From: Prevotella sp. UBA2456
GTDB taxonomy: Bacteria > Bacteroidota > Bacteroidia > Bacteroidales > Bacteroidaceae
Reading direction: 5' to 3'
Assembly: GCA_002342415.1 (NCBI GenBank)
Contig: DDPY01000054.1
Location: 26,662-90,661 of the forward strand
Length of the DNA: 64,000 bases
Part shown: positions 10,400 through 59,704 of the stretch, in pieces
How the letters are laid out: the number at the start of each line of letters is the position of its first letter
Numbering within the stretch: the stretch's first letter is position 1
Translations under genes and position numbers: made by a program
Notes under the pieces: generated by a model
Told to the model about the DNA's origin: nothing
Seen by the model: the letters and a program-made list of their open reading frames with translations, nothing else
The model's database searches: none

Positions 10400-11860
10400 T
10401 CACTTACAAGGAGCATCCTCGAGGGTTTTCTTCAGTAGCTCCCAGAAGGGCTCTACGGTTTCGATGAGGGCACGCTCTGAGGTGGTGTGAGGCGACTTCA
10501 TCGTGGGACCGAGGCTGACGACGTCCAAATGCGGATACTTGCCCAGGATGACTGAACACTCCAATCCGGCATGGTCTACTTGGATGATGCCGTCCTTGCC
10601 GAATAGTTCCTTGTATTCCTTCAGCAGCAGGTGCAGAATCTCCGAGTCGGGATTGGGATCCCATCCTCCGTAAGAACCGCTGGTCTCCACCTTCATGCCT
10701 GCCATTGAGAAGCAGCTTTCCAGCATGGTGGCTACGTAGTCTTTCATGTCCTCGCGGCTGGAACGGGCCAGAATCTTGATGGCGGCATGTCCGCCTTCGA
10801 TATTGATGATGGCAAGATTCGACGAGGTTTCTACCACGCTGGGGTAGGCAGGAATATAGCGGATAACGCCATCGTGGCAGGCGAAGATGGCATCAATCAG
10901 GTTGTCCTGAATCTCTACGGGCACTTCCTTGGCGGGTGTGGTTACTTCCTCTACAAGGACTTCGATGCCCTGTGGCTCAATTAGCTTAAACTCGTCGTTG
11001 AAGGTCTCTTTCCACTCTTCGGCCATTTCCTTCAGAGCGGCAATGTTCTCTTTGGGCAGCGTTAGCACGGCCTCGGCCTTGAAGGGAATGGCGTTGCGCA
11101 TATTGCCACCGTTCCATGATGCCAAACGGGCTTCCGTCTCGCTGATAGCCTCACGGACAATCTGCACCAGCAGTTTGTTGGCATTGCCGCGGCCCTCGTT
11201 GATTTCCAGACCGCTGTGTCCGCCGCGCAGGTTCTTCACCGTTACACGTATGGCAGCATCCTCGGCATCGGTGTCTGCCTCCTGATAGTCCAGTGTTGCA
11301 GTTACGTCAATACCACCGGCACTACCGATGACAAACTTACCCCAATGCTCAGAGTCGAGGTTCAGCAGGATGTCGCCCTGCAACTCGCCCTCTGGCAGCT
11401 CGTTGGCACCAAACATTCCCGTCTCCTCGTCGCGGGTGATGAGGGCATCGATGGGACCGTGTTTCAGCGTCTTGTCCTCCATCACCGACATGATGGCGGC
11501 CACGCCCAGGCCGTTGTCAGCACCCAGCGTAGTGCCCTTGGCCTTTACCCACTCGCCGTCAATCCATGGCTCTATGGGGTCTGTCTCGAAGTGATGGGTT
11601 GACTCTGGTGTCTTCTGAGGCACCATGTCCATGTGAGCCTGCAGGATGATACCCTTGCGGTTCTCCATACCCGGTGTGGCAGGTTTGCGCATCACGATAT
11701 TGCCGGCGGGGTCCTTGAAGGCCTCTACGTCAGCCTGCTTGCCGAAGTCGAGTAGGAACTGCTGAATTTTCTCGAGATGTCCGCTCGGACGCGGAACTTG
11801 TGTGAGTGCATAGAAGTTTTTCCAGATGCACTTGGGGGTTAGGTTTAGAATTTCGTTCAT
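10400..11860 (-). CDS. pepD: Aminoacyl-histidine dipeptidase (M20C)
   Basis: LQAHMDMV, TTLGADNG, DEETGM, GGHSG, HAGLEC. Confidence 0.93.
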   Translation of the reverse strand: MNEILNLTPKCIWKNFYALTQVPRPSGHLEKIQQFLLDFGKQADVEAFKDPAGNIVMRKPATPGMENRKGIILQAHMDMVPQKTPESTHHFETDPIEPWIDGEWVKAKGTTLGADNGLGVAAIMSVMEDKTLKHGPIDALITRDEETGMFGANELPEGELQGDILLNLDSEHWGKFVIGSAGGIDVTATLDYQEADTDAEDAAIRVTVKNLRGGHSGLEINEGRGNANKLLVQIVREAISETEARLASWNGGNMRNAIPFKAEAVLTLPKENIAALKEMAEEWKETFNDEFKLIEPQGIEVLVEEVTTPAKEVPVEIQDNLIDAIFACHDGVIRYIPAYPSVVETSSNLAIINIEGGHAAIKILARSSREDMKDYVATMLESCFSMAGMKVETSGSYGGWDPNPDSEILHLLLKEYKELFGKDGIIQVDHAGLECSVILGKYPHLDVVSLGPTMKSPHTTSERALIETVEPFWELLKKTLEDAPCK

Positions 11861-20899: not shown

Positions 20900-21673
20900 A
20901 TGATGACGGCAAGGCAAGTGATTGAATACATGGAGTCGCTGCGGGATGAGAAGCAGCGTGAGAATCTGATGCGGTTTTTTAAGACTGGACCAGGTGAATA
21001 TGGCGAGGGCGATGAGTTCCTGGGGTTGAAGGTGCCGCAGACGAGAGCGGTGGTACGGGCAGTGTCCAAGGATTTCCTGCTCGGGGAAGTGCCGGAACTG
21101 CTGCTGTCGAAATGGCACGAGGTCAGGCTATGCGGGTTGTTGATACTGGTGGCGAAATTCGAGAAGTTGGCGACAAAGAGGCTGATGAGTGATGGTGAGG
21201 CTATTCGGAGGCGAGACGAGATTGTAGAGATGTATCTGGAGTATGCAGAGCGGGCAAATAACTGGGACTTGGTCGATTTGTCGGCTCCGAAGATACTGGG
21301 AGGCTGGTTGGCAGATTGTCCCTCGAAAGAGATGCGCGCATATAAGCAGCAGGTAGTGGATGAACAGGCTCGGAGTGAGAATTTATGGCGACAGCGGATG
21401 AGTATGGTCTGTACGTGGAAGACTTCGCATGAGGGTGATCCGTCGTGGTGTTTGCATTATGCCGAGATTCATCTGCATCACCCGCACGACTTGATGCACA
21501 AGGCAGTAGGATGGATGCTCAGGGAGATGGGGAAACATTGTTCGTTGGATTTGCTGCGGGCTTTTCTGAGACAACATGCGCACGAAATGCCACGAACAAC
21601 TCTTCGCTATGCGATAGAAAAGATGTCTGAAGTGGAACGAAAGGAGTGGATGTGTTATGAAGGACTATCCTGA
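20900..21673 (+). CDS. DNA alkylation repair protein (AlkD-like)
   Basis: FFKTGPGEYGEGDEFLG, NNWDLVD, HKAVGWMLRE, MPRTTLRYAIE. Confidence 0.9.
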   Translation: MMTARQVIEYMESLRDEKQRENLMRFFKTGPGEYGEGDEFLGLKVPQTRAVVRAVSKDFLLGEVPELLLSKWHEVRLCGLLILVAKFEKLATKRLMSDGEAIRRRDEIVEMYLEYAERANNWDLVDLSAPKILGGWLADCPSKEMRAYKQQVVDEQARSENLWRQRMSMVCTWKTSHEGDPSWCLHYAEIHLHHPHDLMHKAVGWMLREMGKHCSLDLLRAFLRQHAHEMPRTTLRYAIEKMSEVERKEWMCYEGLS

Positions 21674-21992: not shown

Positions 21993-22024
21993 AAGAGGTG
22001 CGATGGGGATGTATCGCACCTCTT
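21993..22024 (+). terminator. Intrinsic terminator hairpin
   Basis: aagaggtgcgat...atcgcacctctt. Confidence 0.7.
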
Positions 22025-22046
22025 CTTGTCTGTTCGGATGGTTGTG

Positions 22047-22105
22047 AATTATTTGGGAAATCAATATTTGTGTTGATGAATCATGTACTGACCCCGTGAT
22101 TCTTG
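22047..22105. repeat. Junction repeat A (GAATCA...CCCCGTGATTC palindrome with ~30-bp extension)
   Basis: Repeated at 22487-22520 (core) and 22788-22837 (extension plus partial core). Confidence 0.85.
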
Positions 22106-22197
22106 GCATTCTTCTTCATTTTTGAAATGAAGTTGTTGGTGGTCTTGTCAGAAGAAGCCATAACGACTTCGTGGTTCAATAGGGCATTTTTTTCCAT
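22081..22197 (-). pseudogene. 38-aa N-terminal gene fragment ending inside repeat A (possibly a Fic-family N-terminus)
   Basis: MEKNALLNHEVVMASSDKTTNNFISKMKKNAKNHGVST*; own -7 element upstream; stop codon supplied by the repeat; family guess from recall only. Confidence 0.45.
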
Positions 22198-22486
22198 AAA
22201 TCAATGCTTTGATGGTGCAAAGGTAGCATTTTTATCTAGAAAAGTGAAGATTTTATGGAAAATTTTCCAAATTGAAAGTACAACCTTCCAAATTTGTGCT
22301 CATTCGAAGCACTCTCACTCGAAAAAGTCCATAATTATTTTGGCTTTTTGCTCACTTTCTCGTACCTTTGCAACCGACAAGAGAGTATTAACAATGCCGA
22401 ATCGGCGCAAAATCGGCGCAAATGCGTTTTTGAGGAATGCCGAAGATGCCCATAAACAAAGGGATACTCAAAGAAATTGAATGACA

Positions 22487-22520
22487 GATGAATCATGTAC
22501 CTCTGTCCCCGTGATTCTTG
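22487..22520. repeat. Junction repeat B
   Basis: gatgaatcatgtacctctgtccccgtgattcttg. Confidence 0.85.
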
Positions 22521-22753
22521 TCAAGGTTGTAGTGGTACATATTTCGCTTCACACTTCTTTTACCCTCCTGACGAACTGACAAAAATTTTTTGTGAGTTCG
22601 TTCTGGTGCTTGCGAAGCATCAAACAACTTCATCATCTGCTCTACATTTAGCCATACATCCTCGCCCTCGAATCTTACATTGACTCGAGCAATCCCGTTT
22701 TCATCCTGATAAATCAGGAATGCCTCATTCCTTTTCTCTATTTCGTTTGCCAT
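22493..22753 (-). pseudogene. N-terminal fragment of a RhuM-family virulence/DNA-binding protein
   Basis: FLIYQDENG..VNVRFEGEDVWL..EQM..LF, KKFLSVRQEG..V.R...HYNLD; truncated at repeat B. Confidence 0.8.
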
Positions 22754-22787
22754 ATCTTCAATATCGTTTTTGTTTGCAAAAGTAATC

Positions 22788-22837
22788 AATTATTTGGGAA
22801 ATCTATACTTTGTGTTGATGAATCATGTACCAGTCCC
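22788..22837. repeat. Junction repeat C
   Basis: aattatttgggaaatctatactttgtgttgatgaatcatgtaccagtccc, near-identical to 22047-22095. Confidence 0.85.
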
Positions 22838-23060
22838 TGCGTCTCTCGAGGTAGGGTATCAGAAATGGTGCTCTACCTTTTATTTTGAAGCCGTTTTGCT
22901 CAAGTTAAGAAACAAAAATCACTTAATTTACTACTTTTTTGTAGTTTTTTTGCTGAATATAAAATATTATTGCTACCTTTGGCAACGAGTTTCAAGTACA
23001 CCTGTGTGCAGATGTGCGTTTTAATGGCTCAACTTTGTAAAAGGAGCATTTGATATTATC

Positions 23061-23222
23061 CTTCACTGAAATCTGGACAATTTCAATCATCAAGGGTAAT
23101 AGGCAATATGCTCATGCTTGGGATTATTATATCATTAATATATCTCCTGCATGGGCTGTTGTCTTTATTTGATGATTGGCAGTCCAGAGCCGCAGTGAGA
23201 TAATTTCAGCAGTCCCATGCTT
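23061..23222 (+). promoter_or_regulatory. Long structured 5' leader with alternative pairings upstream of lipoprotein gene
   Basis: cactg/cagtg, tctggac/gtccaga, caatcatcaa/ttgatgattg, gctcatgc/gcatgggc; competing helix 23149-23161 with 23207-23220. Confidence 0.55.
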
Positions 23223-23301
23223 CTTAACTATTAACGCTGACTTCTTGGGATTGGTTGGCATGGAGTTAAATTATACTAATCATTTAAATAAAACAAAATT
23301 T

Positions 23302-23808
23302 ATGAAAGCATTAAGATTTATTGGAATTGCACTTCTCACAGTGCTTATGAGTGTAAGTTTTTCCGCTTGCGGAGGTAGTGACGATGATGACAATAATGGA
23401 GGTGGAAATGAAACACCCACATCCATTGAGGGGACTTGGTACATGAAATCAGTGACGTGGTACAACTACTATACTGATGGAACTAAAGAGGAGAAAAGGT
23501 CAAGTGACAATAGAACATACGCGGACTATGCAGAAGATGAAATCTGGAAACTTGCAAAAAGCGGTAACAATTATATTTGGACTGAAATAGAGAAAGGTTA
23601 CTCCCCAGAGACGCACACTTGGGAAAAACTTGGAAACAATGAATTTAAATGTTCCCTTGATGGTAAGAATCACAAAATTGTTATCACTTCTATTGAGAGA
23701 AACAAGATGGTTTTGGAATGGACTGAGGATTACGATGGAGAGCCTTCTACATCTAAAGGTAGCAAACCACATTACAGCGTTGGAGTACATACTCTATTAA
23801 GAAAATAA
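23302..23808 (+). CDS. Hypothetical lipoprotein (lipocalin-like, AT-rich)
   Basis: Lipobox VSFSA-C followed by acidic GGSDDDD, IEGTW motif; start moved to ATG 23302. Confidence 0.8.
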   Translation: MKALRFIGIALLTVLMSVSFSACGGSDDDDNNGGGNETPTSIEGTWYMKSVTWYNYYTDGTKEEKRSSDNRTYADYAEDEIWKLAKSGNNYIWTEIEKGYSPETHTWEKLGNNEFKCSLDGKNHKIVITSIERNKMVLEWTEDYDGEPSTSKGSKPHYSVGVHTLLRK

Positions 23809-23902
23809 GAATTAGTAACAAGGAAAGGTAGCAAATAACGCTATCTTTCTTTTTTACTGCGTTATAGGTCAATTCCAATTAGTAGTTCATATATAGTTGT
23901 TG

Positions 23903-23928
23903 TTGGGTCAGGGGACTCTGATCCGTTT
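23903..23928. repeat. Junction repeat D (GGGTCAGGGGACTCTGATCC)
   Basis: Direct repeat of 25054-25081. Confidence 0.85.
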
Positions 23929-24114
23929 GGCCCGTTGACTTTTTAGGATAGTCGCAAGCATATACAAGCCTTTCTCAGTAAAAGCCTTAGCTAGTGAACG
24001 GCTTTTGGCTGATAGATTTGTGGTCGAAATTTTCGACCACAAATCCTTTAACTCGTCTGATGTCAAAACAAACATATAATCCTCAGGGAACTTGTCGGGA
24101 TTGTTCTTTACGGC
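23908..24114 (-). pseudogene. Internal fragment of an ORF6N-domain protein
   Basis: AVKNNPDKFPEDYMF.LT..E ... KAFTEKGLYMLATILKS; no proper N-terminus; ends in repeat D. Confidence 0.8.
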
Positions 24115-24265
24115 TTTCTTGGCTAAAGTTAGACAAAAGTTAATTATAGGCTTCACTTTTTTATGAATATCACAAATTGACAACAAAATTAATATATTTT
24201 CTTCACTTTTAAGTGAATTATAAGAAAAAAGTTGTATCTTTGCACCGACCAAATGACAATGAGCA

Positions 24266-24742
24266 ATGAAAACGATTAATTTGAAGACCATCGAGCAGAA
24301 CGACAACGTGAGCCTATACTCTATTTGCTTCAACGGTAGTGACGTGTCAGAGTATGAGGACTTCTTGATGAAGTTCAAGGATAACTCTACGCTAAATTAT
24401 GATTTTCAGCGCATACTCCTTGCATTGGAAAAGATTATTGACCGTGGCGCACTTGAACGGTTTTTCCGAATAGAAGGAAAGATGAATGACAGAGTTTCTG
24501 CTTTGGCTATCGACTCCAGAAAGTTGCGTCTGTATTGTCTGCGTATCTCTGACCAGATTCTCATAGTTGGGAATGGAGGCGTCAAGACCACACGGACTTA
24601 CCAGGAGAATGAGCAACTGAGTGGCTATGTGATGGACTTGCAGCGTTTTGACGAGCTGTTGAAACAGGCTCAGCAGAACGGCAGCATTACAATTGAGAAG
24701 AACATGATAGTGGGAATAGACAACAAAGTTTTTGAGATATGA
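24266..24742 (+). CDS. Hypothetical protein, putative RelE/HigB-like toxin
   Basis: LRLYCLR...ILIVGNGGVK; overlaps downstream HTH gene by ATGA. Confidence 0.55.
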   Translation: MKTINLKTIEQNDNVSLYSICFNGSDVSEYEDFLMKFKDNSTLNYDFQRILLALEKIIDRGALERFFRIEGKMNDRVSALAIDSRKLRLYCLRISDQILIVGNGGVKTTRTYQENEQLSGYVMDLQRFDELLKQAQQNGSITIEKNMIVGIDNKVFEI

Positions 24743-25005
24743 TTACTAATCCGTTATTTCGCGAGTGTCTGGCAAACGTCTCAGATGAGACCCGTGCCGA
24801 GTTCAATCTCTCGTTTGAGATTGCAGACCGCATTGATGCCTTGCTGAAGAAGAAAGGTATCACACAGAAGGAGTTGGCCGCAAAGATGGGTAAGCGGGAG
24901 TCGGAAATCTCTAAATGGCTCACTGGTCGGCATAACTTCACGACTAAAACCCTTGCTGGTATATCGCTGGCCCTCGGCGAACCAATCATTAGTGTGCCAG
25001 CATAA
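24739..25005 (+). CDS. XRE-family HTH protein, putative antitoxin
   Basis: ITQKELAAKMGKRESEISKWLTGRHNFT. Confidence 0.85.
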   Translation: MITNPLFRECLANVSDETRAEFNLSFEIADRIDALLKKKGITQKELAAKMGKRESEISKWLTGRHNFTTKTLAGISLALGEPIISVPA

Positions 25006-25053
25006 AGTTCTTCTATATCCAATGGGCTGTCGATTATCTCGTCAGCCCATTAT

Positions 25054-25081
25054 TTGGGTCAGGGGACTCTCTGATCCGTTT
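25054..25081. repeat. Junction repeat E
   Basis: ttgggtcaggggactctctgatccgttt. Confidence 0.85.
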
Positions 25082-25131
25082 TAGTAGTGTGATTCGGCGG
25101 AGGGGGCTATAGGCTGTCTTTCTCGCGCTCG
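25081..25131. repeat. ~51-bp duplicate of the HU-like gene 3' end
   Basis: ttagtagtgtgattcggcggagggggctataggctgtctttctcgcgctcg vs 26086-26136 (3 mismatches). Confidence 0.9.
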
Positions 25132-25168
25132 TTAGTCAATTCCTTATATAGCATGAGGCCTTTCACCG

Positions 25169-26011
25169 TCAGCAGATAACTTCTGGTGGATCAATCATCA
25201 TATAGCGATTCTTCAACGAATGGCTTTCTCCCAATAGCAGGTTGCGGAAGAATCGTATGAGGAAAGATTCGTCTGCAGCGATGCCTTTTGCTACATTGCG
25301 ATAATTGGCACGTACCAAGGCGTTACGGAAATACCAGGAGTGGTTGGCGAAGAGTTCGTTGCTGACAGTGAAGCCAAGCATGCGCAGATACTTGATGGTG
25401 AAGAGTGCCGTTGTGCGGGTGTTGCCTTCCCTAAACGGATGAATCTGCCACAGTCCAGACACAAAACGGGCTATATGCTCCACGGTCTTATCCTTGCTCA
25501 ATCCGGTATAGTCAAACTGCCGCTCTTGGTCCAAGTCATACTCTATTGCCATTCGCAGGTCTTGCCAGCGGCCATAGAGCACGGAGTCGCCTCTGAGCAC
25601 CCATTCCTTTTTCGAGATGTCATAGTCACGGAAGCGTCCGGCATGCTTGAATACTCCTTCGAAGATGGCTCTGTGGATGGCAGCCAAACCTGCTACGCTA
25701 TAGGTGAAAGCATCCGTCTGAAGCAGTTTGGAGATGTTGCTCGACACGCGGTCAGCTTCTTCTTTATCCTCATCGCCAGCGTCGTGTGCCGTTCTTTTGA
25801 CGTAATACTGCTTGACAAGTTCGCGTGCCTCGTCAATCGTAATCTCGCCTTCGATGTTCTTCCTGGCCGTTTCTCTCAGATAGTCAGACACTTTCAACCC
25901 GTCAACGGCTTGTAGGCCGATGGCAGTATTCCATGCCTCAGCACGTTCTCGCTGTGCCGGCTCGCCCTGACGTATATATTCGTCGAAATTCAAATATTCT
26001 TCATTCATCAT
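25169..26011 (-). CDS. Fic-family protein with N-terminal VbhA-like antitoxin domain
   Basis: AIGLQAVDGL N-terminal motif; HPFREGNTRTT Fic motif. Confidence 0.9.
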   Translation of the reverse strand: MMNEEYLNFDEYIRQGEPAQRERAEAWNTAIGLQAVDGLKVSDYLRETARKNIEGEITIDEARELVKQYYVKRTAHDAGDEDKEEADRVSSNISKLLQTDAFTYSVAGLAAIHRAIFEGVFKHAGRFRDYDISKKEWVLRGDSVLYGRWQDLRMAIEYDLDQERQFDYTGLSKDKTVEHIARFVSGLWQIHPFREGNTRTTALFTIKYLRMLGFTVSNELFANHSWYFRNALVRANYRNVAKGIAADESFLIRFFRNLLLGESHSLKNRYMMIDPPEVIC

Positions 26012-26111
26012 GATTTGTTGTTTGGCTGTAAAATTACTGAAAAATATTCAGACATCGGTGCCTGCGGCTGCATTTTTACATTTTATTAGTAGTGAGATTG
26101 GGCGGAGGGGG

Positions 26112-26504
26112 CTATAGACTGTCTTTCTCGCGCTCGAAGGTGATGCCCTTGTAGAGTTCGGGACTGCCGCCCTCGCTCTCTGGGATGAAGTGGAGACGGA
26201 CACCGCGGATGTGCTTTTTGGCGCGGAATTGCTTGGGATCGTCCACCTTCTCGCTCTCTATCTCGAGCTTCAACAGTCCGATGCCTGCCAGACGCACCTT
26301 GTCGCCCATCTGCAAGCGGCGCATCACTACTTCGCCCATCGCCATCATCAGTCCCTCCATCGTGCCTGCAGAGAGGGTGGTGCCCCGACAGGCTTCCTTG
26401 GCTATCACTTTGCTGTCTACTGTCTGGTTGTGGACAGCTACTGCCTTGTATTTGCCGAATGTGGGCAGGGTGGGCTTTGTTTCTTTCTTGATTTTGTATC
26501 TCAT
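26112..26504 (-). CDS. HU-like (histone-like) DNA-binding protein
   Basis: GDKVRLAGIG, IRGVRLHFIPE pattern typical of long Bacteroidota HU-like proteins. Confidence 0.8.
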   Translation of the reverse strand: MRYKIKKETKPTLPTFGKYKAVAVHNQTVDSKVIAKEACRGTTLSAGTMEGLMMAMGEVVMRRLQMGDKVRLAGIGLLKLEIESEKVDDPKQFRAKKHIRGVRLHFIPESEGGSPELYKGITFEREKDSL

Positions 26505-26630
26505 CGTGCGTTGTGTTTGATTTCGATTGCAAATTTACTGATTTTCTCCGAAAAACTTTCCTATTCTCTAGAAAATATTTTGTTTTTCTGTTTTTCTCCT
26601 GTCTTTGATTCATTTCAAAATCTTATATTA

Positions 26631-27058
26631 GCCTACATGCCTACATAAATTATAGTAAAAGCCCTGTATTTTCTATGTTTTCTTATAGTATAAGCCTACA
26701 TAAAGCCTACATAAAACCTACATATTGCCTACATGTTTTTGGCAAAATACCTGCATATTCCTTGCTTTCCGTAGGGATGTGGGAGATTCGAAAAGCCGTT
26801 GTCTATGAGTTCTTGATGATACATATCTTTTAAATTCTCTAGAGAATTGTAGAGCCAGACGTAATGTATGTGCTGACGGAAGGCGATGTAACCGTTTAAT
26901 TCTCTAGAGAATTGATATGATTGGCTGCGTTTGAATAGTTGCAAGCGTCAGTCTATGTAGGCTTATGTAGGCTTTATGTAGGCTTTATGTATGCTTGTGA
27001 ATGCGTGAAATGCCGATAAACACTGGAGTTTTGCCACTTTCTATGTAGGCATGTAGGC
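26631..27058. repeat. ~105-bp imperfect inverted arms made of CCTACAT repeats around a ~220-bp core
   Basis: Left 26631-26734, right 26954-27058; core has two perfect AATTCTCTAGAGAATT palindromes (26833, 26898). Confidence 0.9.
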
Positions 27059-27168
27059 TTTTTTGGAAATTCCGCAAATTATTTTTGGAATTACGTTATT
27101 TTTTTAGTACCTTTGTGGGAGTTTTTGAAGAGAATGACTATTGAACTATTAATCTTGTAATTAGTATT

Positions 27169-29283
27169 ATGAAAGTAACTTTTCTGAAGAAAGACGGTAA
27201 AAAGGAAGTAATCAACCGTGTGGAGGTGGGCGCAATAGCCACAGCCATCAAAGCGGGCTCGATGGAACATGCGGTAACGAGGTTTCGTGAGCTGTATCAC
27301 TTGATGAGCATCCACAGAAAGGCCGACGGGCAGATAGTGACCAACTGGGTAGGAGGTGTCCGGCTGCCGCGCATCTGCTTTGCTGCTGACTACCGGATGC
27401 TGAAGGGCGAGTGGCGGATGATGGCCTACAGCGGGCTTGTCGTGCTGGAGGTGAACGACTTGCCGACCTACGAGAAGGCGGTGGAAATCAGGGAGCTGGC
27501 TAAGCAAATGCCAGAAACGATGCTTTGTTTTCTGGGTGGTTCGGGTCGCAGCGTGAAGATTGTGTGCCGTGGTGAACTCTTTGGAGGCGGACTGCCGGAA
27601 GGGGAGGCGGAGATACGCCAGTTTCATCTGAATCTGTACAACACAGCGCGCCGGGCTTACCAGAACCAGTTTGGTTTTGACATCGAGTTTCTGGAGCCGC
27701 TGTTGACGCGTACCGTATATATGAGTGCCGATCCGGAGATGGGCATCAATATGCAGGCGCGTCCGTTCTATGCCGATACGGAGCACCACGAACAGCCTCA
27801 GCCCGTCAGCATCAGTCGCGAGGAGGATGTATTGATGCCTGGGCGCACCGTCACCAGGACCTATCACCTGAACTGGACGTTTATTGTGGAGACCATCATG
27901 GGCCATTATTTTGACCTGCCCGATGAAGACAAGACGGCCAAGCTGCTGATGCAGATAGCCTCGGCGTGTCTGGATCAGGGCATCCCCCTAGCTCACGCAC
28001 AAGGCATGACCCTGCTGCACCCTGTGCTGAACACCGACCGGCTGTTGGTGGAGAAGATTTTCCAGACGGTGTATAGTGTGGCAGAGCAGGAGAATTATCG
28101 CAAGACGCATAAGATAAGACCCCTGAAGAGTGTGCCCGACGATACGCTCAATCAGATAAGGACGGAGATATTCCTCAATTCGCATTATGAAATGCGCAAG
28201 AACCTGCTGACCGGCGTGGCTGAATATCGTAAGAAATTCTCTGACAACCAGGACTTTAAGCCCCTTACCCAAGAGGTGCGCAACAGTATGTCGCTCACGG
28301 CAACGGAAATGGGGCTGAAGGGCTTTGACAAGAACATGAACCGATTCATCGACTCGATGCATATCGAGCAGTACGACCCCGTGAACCAATGGCTCGACAA
28401 ACTGCCTAAATGGGACGGGAAGGACAGAATCGGGGAGCTGGCACAGCGTGTTCCTACCGATCAGCCGCAATGGGAGAAATATCTGCGCTACTGGTTGGTG
28501 GGGATGGTGGCACAATGGCGAGAGAGCGACCGCCAGCTGACGGGTAACGCGCTGACACCGTTGCTGATAGGGCGGCAAGGGTGTGGCAAGACGCGATTCT
28601 GCAAGATACTGCTGCCCGAGGAACTGCGCGACTACTACAACGACAAGATTAACTTCAAAAACGAGTTCGACCTGAACATTGCGCTGACCTCGTTTGCTCT
28701 GATCAATATCGACGAATTTGACAAGACTACATCGTCGCAGCAAATTGTACTGAAATACCTGCTCTCGTCAGCCGATGTCAAGTTCCGTCCACCTTACGGC
28801 AAGACCATCAAGCAGTTCCGCCGATACACCTCGTTCATAGGAACGACCAACCAGATGAAACCGCTGGTGGACCCCACGGGCTCACGCCGTTTCGTATGTG
28901 TGGGCGTGACAGGTAATATCAATTTTGAAGACACCATCAACCACCCGCAACTCTATGCCCAGGCGCTCCATCTCTTTAACGCAGGTGAGCGCTATTGGCT
29001 GGACGAAGCCGAGATACAGACGCTGATCAAGGAGAACGAGCCCTTCCAGAAATTGAACGACCTGGTAGAGATGATAGGCGAAACCTTCAGTCGGCCAGAG
29101 GATGATGTAAACGGCAAGTGGCTGAGTCTGAGCGACATCAGTGACATCTTGTCCCGCCACTATCCCAGTTTCGACCCTGACACCCCATTCCAGAAAATCG
29201 GAAATGCCCTGAACGACGTGCAGTTCAACTTCAGGAGCAAGCGTACGATGAAGCACATGGAATACTGGTTGACAGAGAAATAA
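27169..29283 (+). CDS. VirE/VapE-family P-loop ATPase with BT4734-like N-terminal domain (primase-helicase-like)
   Basis: YSGLVVLEVN, GGSGRSVKI N-terminal motifs; Walker A LIGRQGCGKT, Walker B INIDEFD, SFIGTTN, DPTGSRRF. Confidence 0.88.
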   Translation: MKVTFLKKDGKKEVINRVEVGAIATAIKAGSMEHAVTRFRELYHLMSIHRKADGQIVTNWVGGVRLPRICFAADYRMLKGEWRMMAYSGLVVLEVNDLPTYEKAVEIRELAKQMPETMLCFLGGSGRSVKIVCRGELFGGGLPEGEAEIRQFHLNLYNTARRAYQNQFGFDIEFLEPLLTRTVYMSADPEMGINMQARPFYADTEHHEQPQPVSISREEDVLMPGRTVTRTYHLNWTFIVETIMGHYFDLPDEDKTAKLLMQIASACLDQGIPLAHAQGMTLLHPVLNTDRLLVEKIFQTVYSVAEQENYRKTHKIRPLKSVPDDTLNQIRTEIFLNSHYEMRKNLLTGVAEYRKKFSDNQDFKPLTQEVRNSMSLTATEMGLKGFDKNMNRFIDSMHIEQYDPVNQWLDKLPKWDGKDRIGELAQRVPTDQPQWEKYLRYWLVGMVAQWRESDRQLTGNALTPLLIGRQGCGKTRFCKILLPEELRDYYNDKINFKNEFDLNIALTSFALINIDEFDKTTSSQQIVLKYLLSSADVKFRPPYGKTIKQFRRYTSFIGTTNQMKPLVDPTGSRRFVCVGVTGNINFEDTINHPQLYAQALHLFNAGERYWLDEAEIQTLIKENEPFQKLNDLVEMIGETFSRPEDDVNGKWLSLSDISDILSRHYPSFDPDTPFQKIGNALNDVQFNFRSKRTMKHMEYWLTEK

Positions 29284-29325
29284 AGCAATGAGGGTGTGCC
29301 CAAATAGGCACACCCTCATTGCTTT
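29282..29325. terminator. Bidirectional terminator between virE-like gene and dnaK
   Basis: aaagcaatgagggtgtgcc-caaata-ggcacaccctcattgcttt. Confidence 0.85.
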
Positions 29326-29348
29326 TCTAATGATTTACTTATCGGCTC

Positions 29349-31274
29349 TTACTTCACCTCCTCGAAGTCGGCATCCTGGATATTGTCATCCTTGGGGGCG
29401 CCTTGCTGCTGGGCTTGCTGCTGGCCGGCGAAGGGATTGTCCTGAGGACCAGCCTGCGCGCCCTGGGCACCTGCGCCCTGATACATCTGCTGTGAGGCTG
29501 TCTGCCAAGCGGTGTTGAGGGCAGCCATAGCGGTGTCGATGGCGTTGATGTCGCCAGCCTTGTGGGCATCCTTCAGCTGCTGGAGGGCCTGCTCGATGGC
29601 GGGCTTGTGCTGGGCGGGGATCTTGTCGCCAATCTCCTTCAGCTGGTTCTCGGTCTGGAAGATCATCGAGTCAGCCTGATTCATCTTGTCCACGCGCTCG
29701 CGCTCCTTCTTGTCAGCCTCGGCGTTCTGCTCAGCCTCTGCCTTCATGCGGTTGATCTCGTCCTGTGACAGACCGCTGGAAGCCTCGATGCGGATGGCCT
29801 GCTCCTTGCCTGTAGCCTTATCCTTGGCCGATACCTTCAGGATACCGTTGGCATCGATGTCGAAGGTAACCTCAATCTGAGGGATTCCACGACGGGCAGG
29901 AGCGATACCAGTCAGGTTGAAGATACCCAGCTGCTTGTTCTGTGCAGCCATGGGGCGCTCACCCTGCAGCACGCGGATGGTTACCTCGGTCTGGTTGTCG
30001 GCAGCGGTAGAGAATACCTCGCTCTTCTTGCACGGAATAGTGGTGTTAGCCTCAATCAGCTTGGTCATCACGCCACCCATTGTCTCGATACCCAGTGTCA
30101 GCGGGGTTACGTCGAGCAGTACGATGTCGCCTACGCCACCTTCCTTGTTCAGGATGGCACCCTGGATAGAAGCACCTACGGCTACCACCTCGTCGGGGTT
30201 GACACCCTTTGAAGGCTCCTTGCCGAAGTAGTTCTTGACGAGCTCCTGTACGGCAGGGATACGGCTCGAACCACCTACGAGGATTACCTCGTCGATATCG
30301 GCAGTGTTCAGCTTGGCATCAGCGATAGCTTTCTGACAGGGAGCCAGACAAGCCTGGATGAGTCCGTGAGCCAGCTGCTCGAACTTGGCACGAGTGAGGG
30401 TCTTCACCAAGTGCTTAGGTACACCGCCTACAGGCATGATGTAGGGCAGGTTGATTTCTGTTGAGGTTGAAGAAGACAGTTCAATCTTAGCCTTCTCGGC
30501 AGCCTCTTTCAAGCGCTGCATAGCCATCGGGTCGGCCTTCAGGTCGGCACCCTCGTCGTTGCGGAACTCGTCTACCAACCAGTCGATGATAACCTGATCG
30601 AAGTCGTCACCACCCAGGTGAGTATCACCATTGGTAGAGAGCACCTCGAAGACACCACCGCCGAACTCGAGGATAGAGATATCGAACGTACCACCACCGA
30701 GGTCGAAGACGGCAATCTTCATATCCTTGTTGGCCTTGTCGACACCGTATGCCAAAGCGGCAGCTGTAGGCTCGTTGACAATACGGCGCACGTTGAGGCC
30801 TGCAATCTGTCCGGCCTCCTTGGTGGCCTGACGCTGAGAGTCAGAGAAGTAGGCAGGCACGGTGATGACAGCATCGGTCACCTCCTGTCCCAGATAGTCC
30901 TCGGCGGTCTTCTTCATCTTCTGCAGAATCATGGCCGAGATTTCCTGCGGTGTGTACTTACGACCGTCGATGTCGACACGAGGATAGCCGCCCTCGTTGA
31001 CTACAGAATAAGGTACGCGCGAGATTTCCTTCTCGGTCTGCTGCCAGTTCTCACCCATGAAGCGCTTGATAGAGTAGACGGTCTTCTTGGGGTTGGTGAT
31101 GGCCTGACGCTTGGCGGGGTCGCCAATCTTGCGCTCACCATTGTCTACGAAGCCAACGACAGAGGGCGTTGTGCGCTTACCCTCACTGTTAGCGATTACT
31201 ACGGGCTCGTTACCTTCGAAAACGGCAACGCAGCTGTTGGTTGTTCCTAAATCGATTCCAATAATCTTTCCCAT
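29349..31274 (-). CDS. dnaK: Chaperone DnaK
   Basis: [34 protein letters not shown] end; start at ATG 31274. Confidence 0.99.
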
Positions 31275-58360: not shown

Positions 58361-59704
58361 TCAGAAGAGGAAGGTGCGCTCGGCCCAGTAGCAGAGGATA
58401 CCGGCGAGATAGCCGACGAAGGCTATCCAGGTGATCTTCTTCATGTACCAGCCGAAGGTGATCTTTTCGAGGCCCATGACTACGACACCGGCGGCAGAAC
58501 CGATGATGAGCATCGAACCGCCCACGCCGGCGCAGTAGGCCAGCAGCTGCCAGAAGATGCCGTCGACGGCCATGTCGCCTGCGGCCTGAACGGGATACAT
58601 GCCCATGCATCCGGCCACGAGGGGCACGTTGTCGACGATGGACGACAGCACGCCGATGATGCCCGTCACCAGATAGTGGTTGCCCTCGAAGGCAACATCG
58701 AGGCTCTTGCCCAGCATGGTGAGCACGCCGATGGTCTCCAGACAGGCTACGGCCATCAGGATGCCGAGGAAGAAGAGGATGGTGGACATGTCAATGCGCG
58801 TGAGCATGGTGGTGACGCGCTTCTGCATGGCGCCTTTCTCCTCGGGGGCCTTCAGGTCGGCATAGAATATCTCGGTGACGGTCCACAGCACACCGAGCAC
58901 GAGCAGGATGCCCACGAACGGCGGCAGGTGGGTGATGGTCTTGAAGATGGGCACGAAGATGAGACCGCCCACTCCCAGGAAGAAGATAATCTTTCGCTGC
59001 GAGGTCGTCAGGTCGCTGGCTCCTACGGTCTGGGCCTGCGCGGCTGTAAAGGTCAGGTTGCCCTTGAGCGACAGCGACAGGATGTAGGCTGGGATGACCA
59101 TCGAGACGAGCGAGGGAATGAAAATCTCCATGATGACGCCGGCGGCCGTGATGACGCCCTTGTTCCAGAGCATGATGGTGGTGACGTCGCCGATGGGCGA
59201 GAAGGCACCGCCGGAGTTGGCGGCGATGACTACCAGTGCGGCATAGATGAGGCGGTCCTTCTGGTCGCTCACCAGCTTGCGCAGAATCATAATCATCACG
59301 ATCGAGGTGGTGAGGTTGTCGAGGATGGCCGACAGGATGAAGGTCATGAAGGCGATGCGCCACAGCAGGGCCCGCTTCGACTTGGTCTGCAGCGTGTCGC
59401 GCACAAAGTTGAAACCTCCGTTCTGGTCTACCAGCTCTACAATGGTCATGGCACCCATGAGGAAGAAGAGAGTGGTGGAAGTGGAGCCCAGGTGGTGCTC
59501 GATGACTTCGCTGACGGCTGAGGCAACCTTGTCGCCCACGGCTCCAGCCACATAGCTGCCCGGATCGAACATGAAGAGCGTCCAGCAGCCCACGAACATC
59601 AGCAAGGCAATGGCAGCCTTGTTGATTTTTGTCAGGCTCTCGATGGCAATGCAGAAATAGCCGATGCAGAAGAGGATGACGATGCAAATTGTTAATGTTG
59701 ACAT
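58361..59704 (-). CDS. nhaD: NhaD-family Na+/H+ antiporter
   Basis: FFLMGAMTIVE, LSAILDNLTT, AANSGGAFSPIGDVTT, SSIVDNVPLV, GGSMLIIGSAAGV. Confidence 0.9.
   Translation of the reverse strand: MSTLTICIVILFCIGYFCIAIESLTKINKAAIALLMFVGCWTLFMFDPGSYVAGAVGDKVASAVSEVIEHHLGSTSTTLFFLMGAMTIVELVDQNGGFNFVRDTLQTKSKRALLWRIAFMTFILSAILDNLTTSIVMIMILRKLVSDQKDRLIYAALVVIAANSGGAFSPIGDVTTIMLWNKGVITAAGVIMEIFIPSLVSMVIPAYILSLSLKGNLTFTAAQAQTVGASDLTTSQRKIIFFLGVGGLIFVPIFKTITHLPPFVGILLVLGVLWTVTEIFYADLKAPEEKGAMQKRVTTMLTRIDMSTILFFLGILMAVACLETIGVLTMLGKSLDVAFEGNHYLVTGIIGVLSSIVDNVPLVAGCMGMYPVQAAGDMAVDGIFWQLLAYCAGVGGSMLIIGSAAGVVVMGLEKITFGWYMKKITWIAFVGYLAGILCYWAERTFLF

Follow-up and report, generated by a model that had tools for sequence, protein, structure and literature searches.

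The Rep proteins of Staphylococcus aureus pathogenicity islands (SaPIs) are self-loading helicase-initiators whose C-terminal winged helix binds element-specific iterons; these lie on both sides of an AT-rich centre and point in opposite directions, and one hexamer is thought to load per side (PMC9371898). Here we describe a locus with an origin-like layout of this kind in a 64,000-nt stretch of Prevotella sp. UBA2456 (contig DDPY01000054.1, positions 26,662 to 90,661), referred to as the window: a block of about 430 bp made of two opposed repeat arms, situated upstream of a gene for a BT4734/VirE-type primase-helicase. Two other groups of systems serve as points of comparison. Phage P4 has octamer iterons in direct and inverted orientation and a second cluster, crr, away from ori, reminiscent of the gene-less (orphan) copies of the block reported below, and the SV40 large T and papillomavirus E1 proteins are superfamily 3 (SF3) initiators whose double hexamers assemble head to head on short repeats inverted about a dyad. 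Our analysis suggests that the block is probably the cognate docking site of the adjacent primase-helicase, at which this protein would load. A literature search returned no description of the DNA targets of the BT4734/VirE family, nor of this arrangement.

The original prediction, made from the letters of the window, had placed a symmetric block between two divergent promoters and had described opposed arms with four phased units each. Direct reading and repeat finding confirmed a mirror-image two-arm block at 26630-27059, and both of the -7 motifs that had been named are present. The block and the gene that it precedes comprise the following features:

26604-27064, no strand: repeated unit in its full extent, defined by homology with orphan copies on contigs C33 and C31 and at the start of C4 (blastn of the block against the genome; contig-end sequences)
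26630-26735, + strand: distal (left) arm, with its head pair at 26631-26647, an AT-rich spacer at 26648-26691 and units starting at 26694, 26705, 26716 and 26727
26953-27059, - strand: proximal (right) arm, the mirror image, with units at 26954, 26964 and 26975, a degenerate fourth unit at 26986 (TATGTATGC), a spacer at 26997-27041 and its head pair at 27042-27059
26530-26537, - strand: -7 motif TAAATTTG of the HU-HIG gene, of the Bacteroidota type (motif scan)
27108-27115, + strand: -7 motif TACCTTTG of the primase-helicase gene (motif scan; second candidate at 27080-27087)
27169-29283, + strand: primase-helicase of 704 aa, with a BT4734-type archaeo-eukaryotic primase (AEP) domain at residues 65-191, a VapE/SF3 ATPase at residues 409-625 and a DUF3874 tail at residues 634-704 (Pfam)

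Each arm consists of an abutting head pair GCCTACATGCCTACATA, a spacer and four units spaced 10-11 bp, giving six 8-bp sites per arm that all face the same way (two abutting and four in helical phase). The left-arm head pair reads GCCTACAT-GCCTACATA and is followed by a 44-bp spacer; the right spacer measures 45 bp. Apart from the degenerate unit, the right arm is the reverse complement of the left, with 94-100% complementarity over 23-33 nt in the inner arrays and 76% over the outer 42 nt. The motif RCCTACATA has eight exact matches in the window, all within the block, compared with 0.54 expected, and none of 100 shuffles reached eight. The promoter motif TAnnTTTG is enriched across the window (47 matches vs 17.7 expected), and none of its matches falls inside the block (26630-27060). 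An Rfam search of 26000-27600 found no known RNA, the only hit being a chance lncRNA match (E=1).

To follow the block through related genomes, which contain up to 22 stretches each that match a BT4734/VirE-type primase-helicase, we fetched 63 loci whose products are 63-96% identical to the primase-helicase of the window and counted arrays over 57 of them. These loci place the source in the Xylanibacter ruminicola group of rumen Prevotella. A strict two-arm array, defined as at least three copies of a 7-mer followed by at least three inverted copies within 800 bp upstream of the gene, was present in 49 of the 57 loci at about -620 to -90 from the gene, and looser arrays were seen in most of the other eight. 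Controls were empty inside the coding sequence (0/57), in shuffled sequence (0/57) and at -1800 to -1000 (0/54). The layout was constant: about 55 or 66 bp separate the outer head pair from an array with a period of 10-11 bp, a centre of 70-430 bp follows, and the mirror arm ends, on the proximal side, about 90 bp before the start codon across loci. The 8-bp unit itself was locus-specific (GCCTACAT, AACTACAT, ACTGACAT, AATGACAT, TCCGACAT, TTCGACAT, AACATACAC, CCTTCACT, CTATCCAC and others), and one genome carries four paralogous modules, each with a different unit.

Covariation between the unit and the protein maps to the C-terminal tail. When loci with the unit GCCTACAT (n=11) were compared with those with AACTACAT (n=7), the best four discriminating columns of 704 were 675, 673, 659 and 666, all of them in the tail, and residue 675 split the two classes perfectly (Q/H vs R/K). 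It was also the only perfect column (E vs T/Q/V) in a second, independent contrast drawn from another clade, ACTGACAT/C (n=5) vs AATGACAT (n=6). Tail residues 659-693 co-vary with the iteron unit, and at matched divergence of residues 1-639 the tail was more divergent in different-unit pairs in every bin (0.234 vs 0.035 in the closest bin). One locus, L026, encodes the sister of the window protein when the full length is compared, but its tail falls with those of the other AACTACAT loci; as a single gene-conversion patch could give this pattern, we take it as supportive only. The tail of the window protein is encoded as follows:

29068-29280, + strand: C-terminal winged-helix domain, the putative iteron reader (AlphaFold2 model, structural matches, covariation), with the Q675 codon at 29191-29193

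In the AlphaFold2 model, residues 596-704 adopt a winged helix (predicted local distance difference test score 83.5); residue 675 falls within the first turn of its recognition helix, and the wing contains residue 693. The structural matches of the tail are winged-helix DNA-binding domains with Z scores of 5-6.5, including the origin-binding domain of the phage P4 alpha protein (1KA8; Z 6.0, root-mean-square deviation 3.1, 73 residues aligned). Foldseek of the tail model against the PDB gave no match at E <= 0.001, and the SaPI1 Rep1 structure 7PDS was not among the top 50 VIA-wide structural matches of the tail. Taken together, covariation and predicted fold give good support to binding of the array by the primase-helicase tail, which we regard as very likely; the DUF3874 tail is the predicted reader domain and residue 675 a candidate specificity residue. 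The original prediction had expected the two-arm layout upstream of homologues, with a locus-specific unit co-varying with the protein C-terminus, and this is what was found. The proposal of a cis site belonging to the neighbouring VirE-like gene is upheld by the linkage of the block to that gene across loci and by covariation, which also makes the C-terminal domain the most likely reader, as had been proposed.

The domains of the protein are assigned by Pfam (PF08800, E 1e-37; PF05272, E 7.7e-36), the DUF3874 match being weak. By phmmer against PDB sequences, residues 400-644 align to residues 114-361 of SaPI1 Rep1 (7PDS_A, E 6.9e-8), the only solved-structure relative by sequence, and the matched part is the ATPase domain. 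E94/N96, S128-V-K130, D188, the Walker A motif GRQGCGKT and the Walker B motif IDEFD are invariant in 55 homologues. A lysine in place of histidine in motif II is a hallmark of the BT4734-like AEP family (PMC11724360), and both PF08800 and the variant motifs, including the motif II lysine, place the protein in this family (VirE_N). Since primase and ATPase motifs are invariant, the protein is under selection as an enzyme. A second BT4734-type gene of this genome (G000 C8:21337, 689 aa), outside the window, has a different, compact array upstream (C8 ~20950-21336), composed of GGGTGTCAGGGTGTCAG, a 36-bp spacer and three inverted GGGTGACA units, plus four copies each of TTTTTCGAGTGCRGGGGA and AATAATGGCAGGTTATT.

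Between the arms lies a centre with a pair of palindromes that was absent from the description given in the original prediction:

26741-26952, no strand: centre, 212 bp, GC 0.41, holding a 31-nt core (26774-26804) that is identical in the C33 orphan
26833-26848, no strand: palindrome P1, AATTCTCTAGAGAATT (repeat finding), invariant across loci with different iteron units
26898-26913, no strand: palindrome P2, AATTCTCTAGAGAATT, exactly 65 bp from P1
26563-26576, no strand: third, imperfect palindrome copy, ATTCTCTAGAAAAT, next to the HU promoter (repeat finding)

The sequence TCTCTAGAGA is present twice in 29 loci whatever their iteron unit, the two copies being 65 bp apart in 28 loci and 66 bp apart in one. 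Three more loci combine this 65-bp spacing with a variant palindrome (TCTCGAGAGA or TCTCATGAGA), and seven further loci have looser TCTAGA pairs at distances of 63-67 bp. An extra TCTAGA-like copy lies at about -600 to -780 in 13 loci, often at the HU promoter. Among 151 genomes of the genus, 12 contain the pattern TTCTCTAGAGAA-N53-TTCTCTAGAGAA, with 28 sites in all; the reversed control pattern gave none. Multiple alignment of the whole centre over 50 loci was too divergent to inform, the palindromes excepted. In most loci the arms lie at about 125-135 bp on either side of the palindrome pair, so that the whole element has a dyad. Some form of the palindrome pair was found in every locus that bears an HU gene and in 8 of the 28 loci without one. 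The palindromes are presumably bound by a conserved accessory factor, HU-HIG being one candidate, and the conserved beta-arm of HU would fit an invariant palindrome target; no covariation in its favour was seen, the HU proteins of the TCTCGAGAGA-variant loci (n=2 only) having no private residue in common.

These features allow the locus to be set against the systems introduced above. With the Reps of SaPIs and other phage-inducible chromosomal islands (PICIs) it shares a VapE-type SF3 ATPase homologous by sequence, the fusion of a primase to the helicase as in PriRep5, a C-terminal winged helix that would specify short element-specific repeats (predicted here from the model and covariation), and opposed repeats flanking a centre, which imply two oligomers. 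It differs from them in its BT4734-type AEP primase, in the site upstream of the gene, whereas the SaPI iteron site lies immediately downstream of rep, in composite arms of 2 + 4 sites around an AT-rich spacer, in a centre that is not AT-rich and holds the invariant palindrome pair, in its dispersed orphan copies, and in its surroundings, which lack integrase, repressor and packaging genes and contain HU-HIG, Fic/VbhA, ORF6N, dnaK and recA instead. P4 alpha is likewise a primase-helicase with a C-terminal winged-helix origin-binding domain, the domain matched by the predicted tail. However, the tails show no detectable sequence similarity, the two primases belong to different types, P4 as a satellite carries an integrase, and the orphans reported here are complete copies scattered over the chromosome rather than one nearby cis element. 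The SV40 and papillomavirus origins differ from the block in being compact (~64 bp) with flanking AT tracts, and the DNA-binding domain of the viral initiators precedes the helicase in the chain and has a fold other than the winged helix.

The block is not confined to the primase-helicase locus. In this genome blastn found it, with the same unit, at three contig ends, corresponding to at least two more copies: the end of C33 carries the left arm and half of the centre, and the starts of C31 and C4 carry right arms. Homology stops at the outer head pair, the neighbours of the orphans are unrelated genes, and the orphans are more alike to each other than to the linked copy. Five relatives contain 19 palindrome-pair sites, 8 beside a primase-helicase gene and 11 without; all 11 orphans have complete arms, and most share the unit of a linked copy in their own genome. 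In G073, five copies can be aligned over the whole stretch from one head pair to the other and for about 150 bp more on the distal side; all have the same orientation and sharp boundaries, and no target-site duplication is recognisable at their fuzzy ends. Some orphan neighbourhoods hold defence-candidate genes and others housekeeping genes. The seven closest relatives have no array upstream of the orthologue of the C4:195 gene, where this genome has an orphan arm, but divergence of their intergenic DNA prevents insertion ends from being defined.

Such dispersal raises the alternative that the block is a non-autonomous element of 460-700 bp resembling a miniature inverted-repeat transposable element (MITE), with terminal inverted repeats of about 110 bp, the virE site being one insertion among many. 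The block indeed behaves partly like a MITE: it is non-coding, shorter than 700 bp, bounded by long terminal inverted repeats and dispersed in several copies per genome. The additional copies ending at the outer head pair, the eleven fully armed sites without virE, the sharply bounded G073 set, the mutual similarity of the orphans of this genome and the empty site in seven relatives all fit this explanation. It is opposed by the constant position and orientation upstream of 49 of the 57 homologues and by the unit co-varying with the gene tail. Neither is attainable by random insertion, so the spread of orphans is real but secondary to the role as a cis site. Moreover, one copy always lies beside the primase-helicase gene, the only gene linked to the block, which is situated outside the repeats and has a tail that matches the unit; none of the copies examined had a transposase or recombinase nearby, and target-site duplications were not seen. 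The original prediction had held that dispersal independent of virE genes would mark the block as a MITE. Gene-less orphans are dispersed, but the fixed place beside virE is kept, and this place together with the matched tail indicates that the linked copy is a functional cis site and not a chance insertion. We therefore consider it improbable that the block is primarily a MITE.

Further observations were made on the orphans. The G073 copies (L097, L106-L109) share a 13-bp perfect hairpin (TTCGTTACGTTTT ... AAAACGTAACGAA) about 60-130 bp beyond the distal head pair; the window copy has nothing equivalent on its HU side. Many contigs of the genus start 100-700 bp upstream of the orthologue of the conserved C4:195 gene (L115 195-1337, G000:C4), which suggests an assembly-breaking repeat at this position across the genus. 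In another relative a GCCTACAT/GCCTACAC-type orphan with a longer centre and the palindrome variants AATTCTCTCGAGAATT and AATTCTCGAGAGAATT lies between two lipoprotein-like open reading frames (ORFs) (L009 1040-1610, G034:C283). A gene-less paralogue of the C8 array region was located at C33 119700-119990 (L001 ~11390-11680) and precedes the GCCTACAT orphan at the C33 end by about 120 bp, so that orphans of two types are adjacent there.

Long inverted repeats flanking a 212-bp segment, in a genome whose assembly breaks inside the block, could also be read as an invertible switch, with the arms as inversion sites, or as joined ends, that is, the circle or telomere junction of an excised element. 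The contig breaks are accounted for by the multiple copies. There is no promoter motif inside the block, and the profile search for tyrosine recombinases/integrases (PF00589) found no match along the entire 101-kb contig, nor did the ORFs scanned in the neighbourhood (~13.3-34 kb of the window) include such a gene, in line with the earlier statement that no integrase or transposase is present. The centre keeps the same orientation to its flanks in all five G073 copies and between the window and C33. The features expected of an invertible promoter switch, namely an internal promoter, a nearby recombinase and both orientations among the copies compared, were all missing. Nor is the centre a continuous palindrome, unlike a hairpin-telomere junction. 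For these reasons a switch is highly improbable, and the fused end-to-end junction that the original prediction had entertained is unlikely given the constant orientation and the centre that is not palindromic overall.

The surroundings of the module include the following genes:

26112-26504, - strand: HU-HIG family gene, 130 aa (PF18291, E 3.8e-16), divergent from the primase-helicase gene
24266-24742, no strand: PDC-M64B-like ORF (PADLOC candidate defence family)
23908-24378, no strand: ORF6N/PDC-S05 ORF (PADLOC candidate defence family)
low-GC island, no strand: Fic/VbhA gene (PADLOC PDC-S72, 7e-123)

HU-HIG genes are almost entirely without conserved linkages (PMC5499826). Among the 57 homologous loci, 29 carry one divergently upstream and the rest none, and the HU-like protein, originally suggested as an architectural cofactor, is no obligatory partner of the module. 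Some of its alignment columns discriminate unit classes, and these fall in the variable helical body and not in the conserved arm. HU-HIG was rejected as the primary iteron reader because these columns lie in the variable body, because physical linkage ties the gene to the array, and because about half of the loci lack it. Housekeeping genes surround the module, with DNA-alkylation repair and MGMT genes on the left and dnaK and recA on the right; dnaK lies downstream of the primase-helicase gene in the window and in four other species. Between the MGMT and HU genes we noted a low-GC island (22000-26011; GC 0.42-0.44 vs 0.52-0.59 around it), the low GC covering 20-26 kb of the window, upstream of the HU gene. 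In addition to the candidate defence genes the island holds two ORFs without assignment, and its cargo is not common to related loci, except for Fic in L025 and L077. Where HU is absent, HepT, MNT, PIN, AbiEii and DUF3990 genes lie upstream instead; these differences imply that the upstream flank carries variable cargo. A 76-aa ORF (29288-29518) had no Pfam or PADLOC match and no counterpart in the 63 related loci, and is probably not a gene. Elsewhere in the window (58478-58565), ARAGORN called a tRNA-Ser with anticodon ACT and an unusual loop position (30); perhaps the anticodon was mis-called, or the tRNA is an odd one.

The best mechanistic reading of the block, drawn by analogy with SaPI Rep and P4 alpha, is a bidirectional loading origin. 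The winged-helix tail would read the 8-bp sites of each arm and, as the arms face each other, two oligomers could assemble head to head around the centre with its palindrome pair. A self-loading SF3 helicase-initiator might then load at the block, melt the DNA and prime; hexamer loading, melting, priming and any replication are steps that we infer. Orphans with the same unit in the same genome would provide further sites for the same protein in trans.

Several points weigh against this mechanism or the evidence behind it. The structural matches at Z ~6 are middling and tied among many winged-helix domains, and unit classes partly follow phylogeny, so that the number of independent unit switches is small (~2-3 per contrast). 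An AT-rich unwinding element was not found in the centre, whose GC of 0.41 compares with arm values of 0.31 and 0.41; AT content is highest in the spacers within the arms and, outside them, in the promoter regions. No GC-skew switch was found at the block site. The lack of an integrase on the contig means that the locus is not a classical excisable island. Finally, with the block upstream of the gene and between two promoters, autoregulation alone could explain binding. The tail could thus act on an operator and titration array, autoregulating the two divergent promoters with the orphans as sinks and no start of DNA synthesis. Iteron-binding initiators commonly autoregulate. The block sits exactly between the HU and virE -7 motifs, with head pairs 45-90 bp away, the third palindrome copy overlaps the HU promoter region, and the missing unwinding element is equally in keeping with an operator. 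However, twelve phased sites over 430 bp, a strict mirror and a palindrome pair at 65 bp far exceed the needs of a promoter-operator, the orphans adjoin unrelated genes, and the invariant primase and ATPase motifs argue that the enzyme acts on DNA. We therefore regard a purely regulatory array as rather unlikely and favour a docking site at which the primase-helicase would load.

A more far-reaching version of the loading-origin reading, which we consider doubtful, is an integrase-less, chromosome-resident replicon. A trigger such as phage attack would make it fire at the linked site and at the orphans in trans, over-replicating the adjacent variable cargo of toxin-antitoxin and defence genes, and orphans would spread by copying that depends on the primase-helicase. 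If this holds, it would represent a mobile cis element of a new type, driven by replication and independent of a transposase.

Few uncharacterised multi-copy genes are as common in gut and rumen Bacteroidota as those for BT4734/VirE-type primase-helicases, and the family now has a concrete cis site, a predicted reader domain and, in residue 675, a candidate for the determinant of specificity. If the sites only bind, they offer a matched series of protein-DNA recognition pairs useful for studying the evolution of specificity; if they fire, they would be secondary chromosomal origins, with a bearing on gene dosage, the dynamics of defence islands and, as contigs break at the sites, metagenome assembly.

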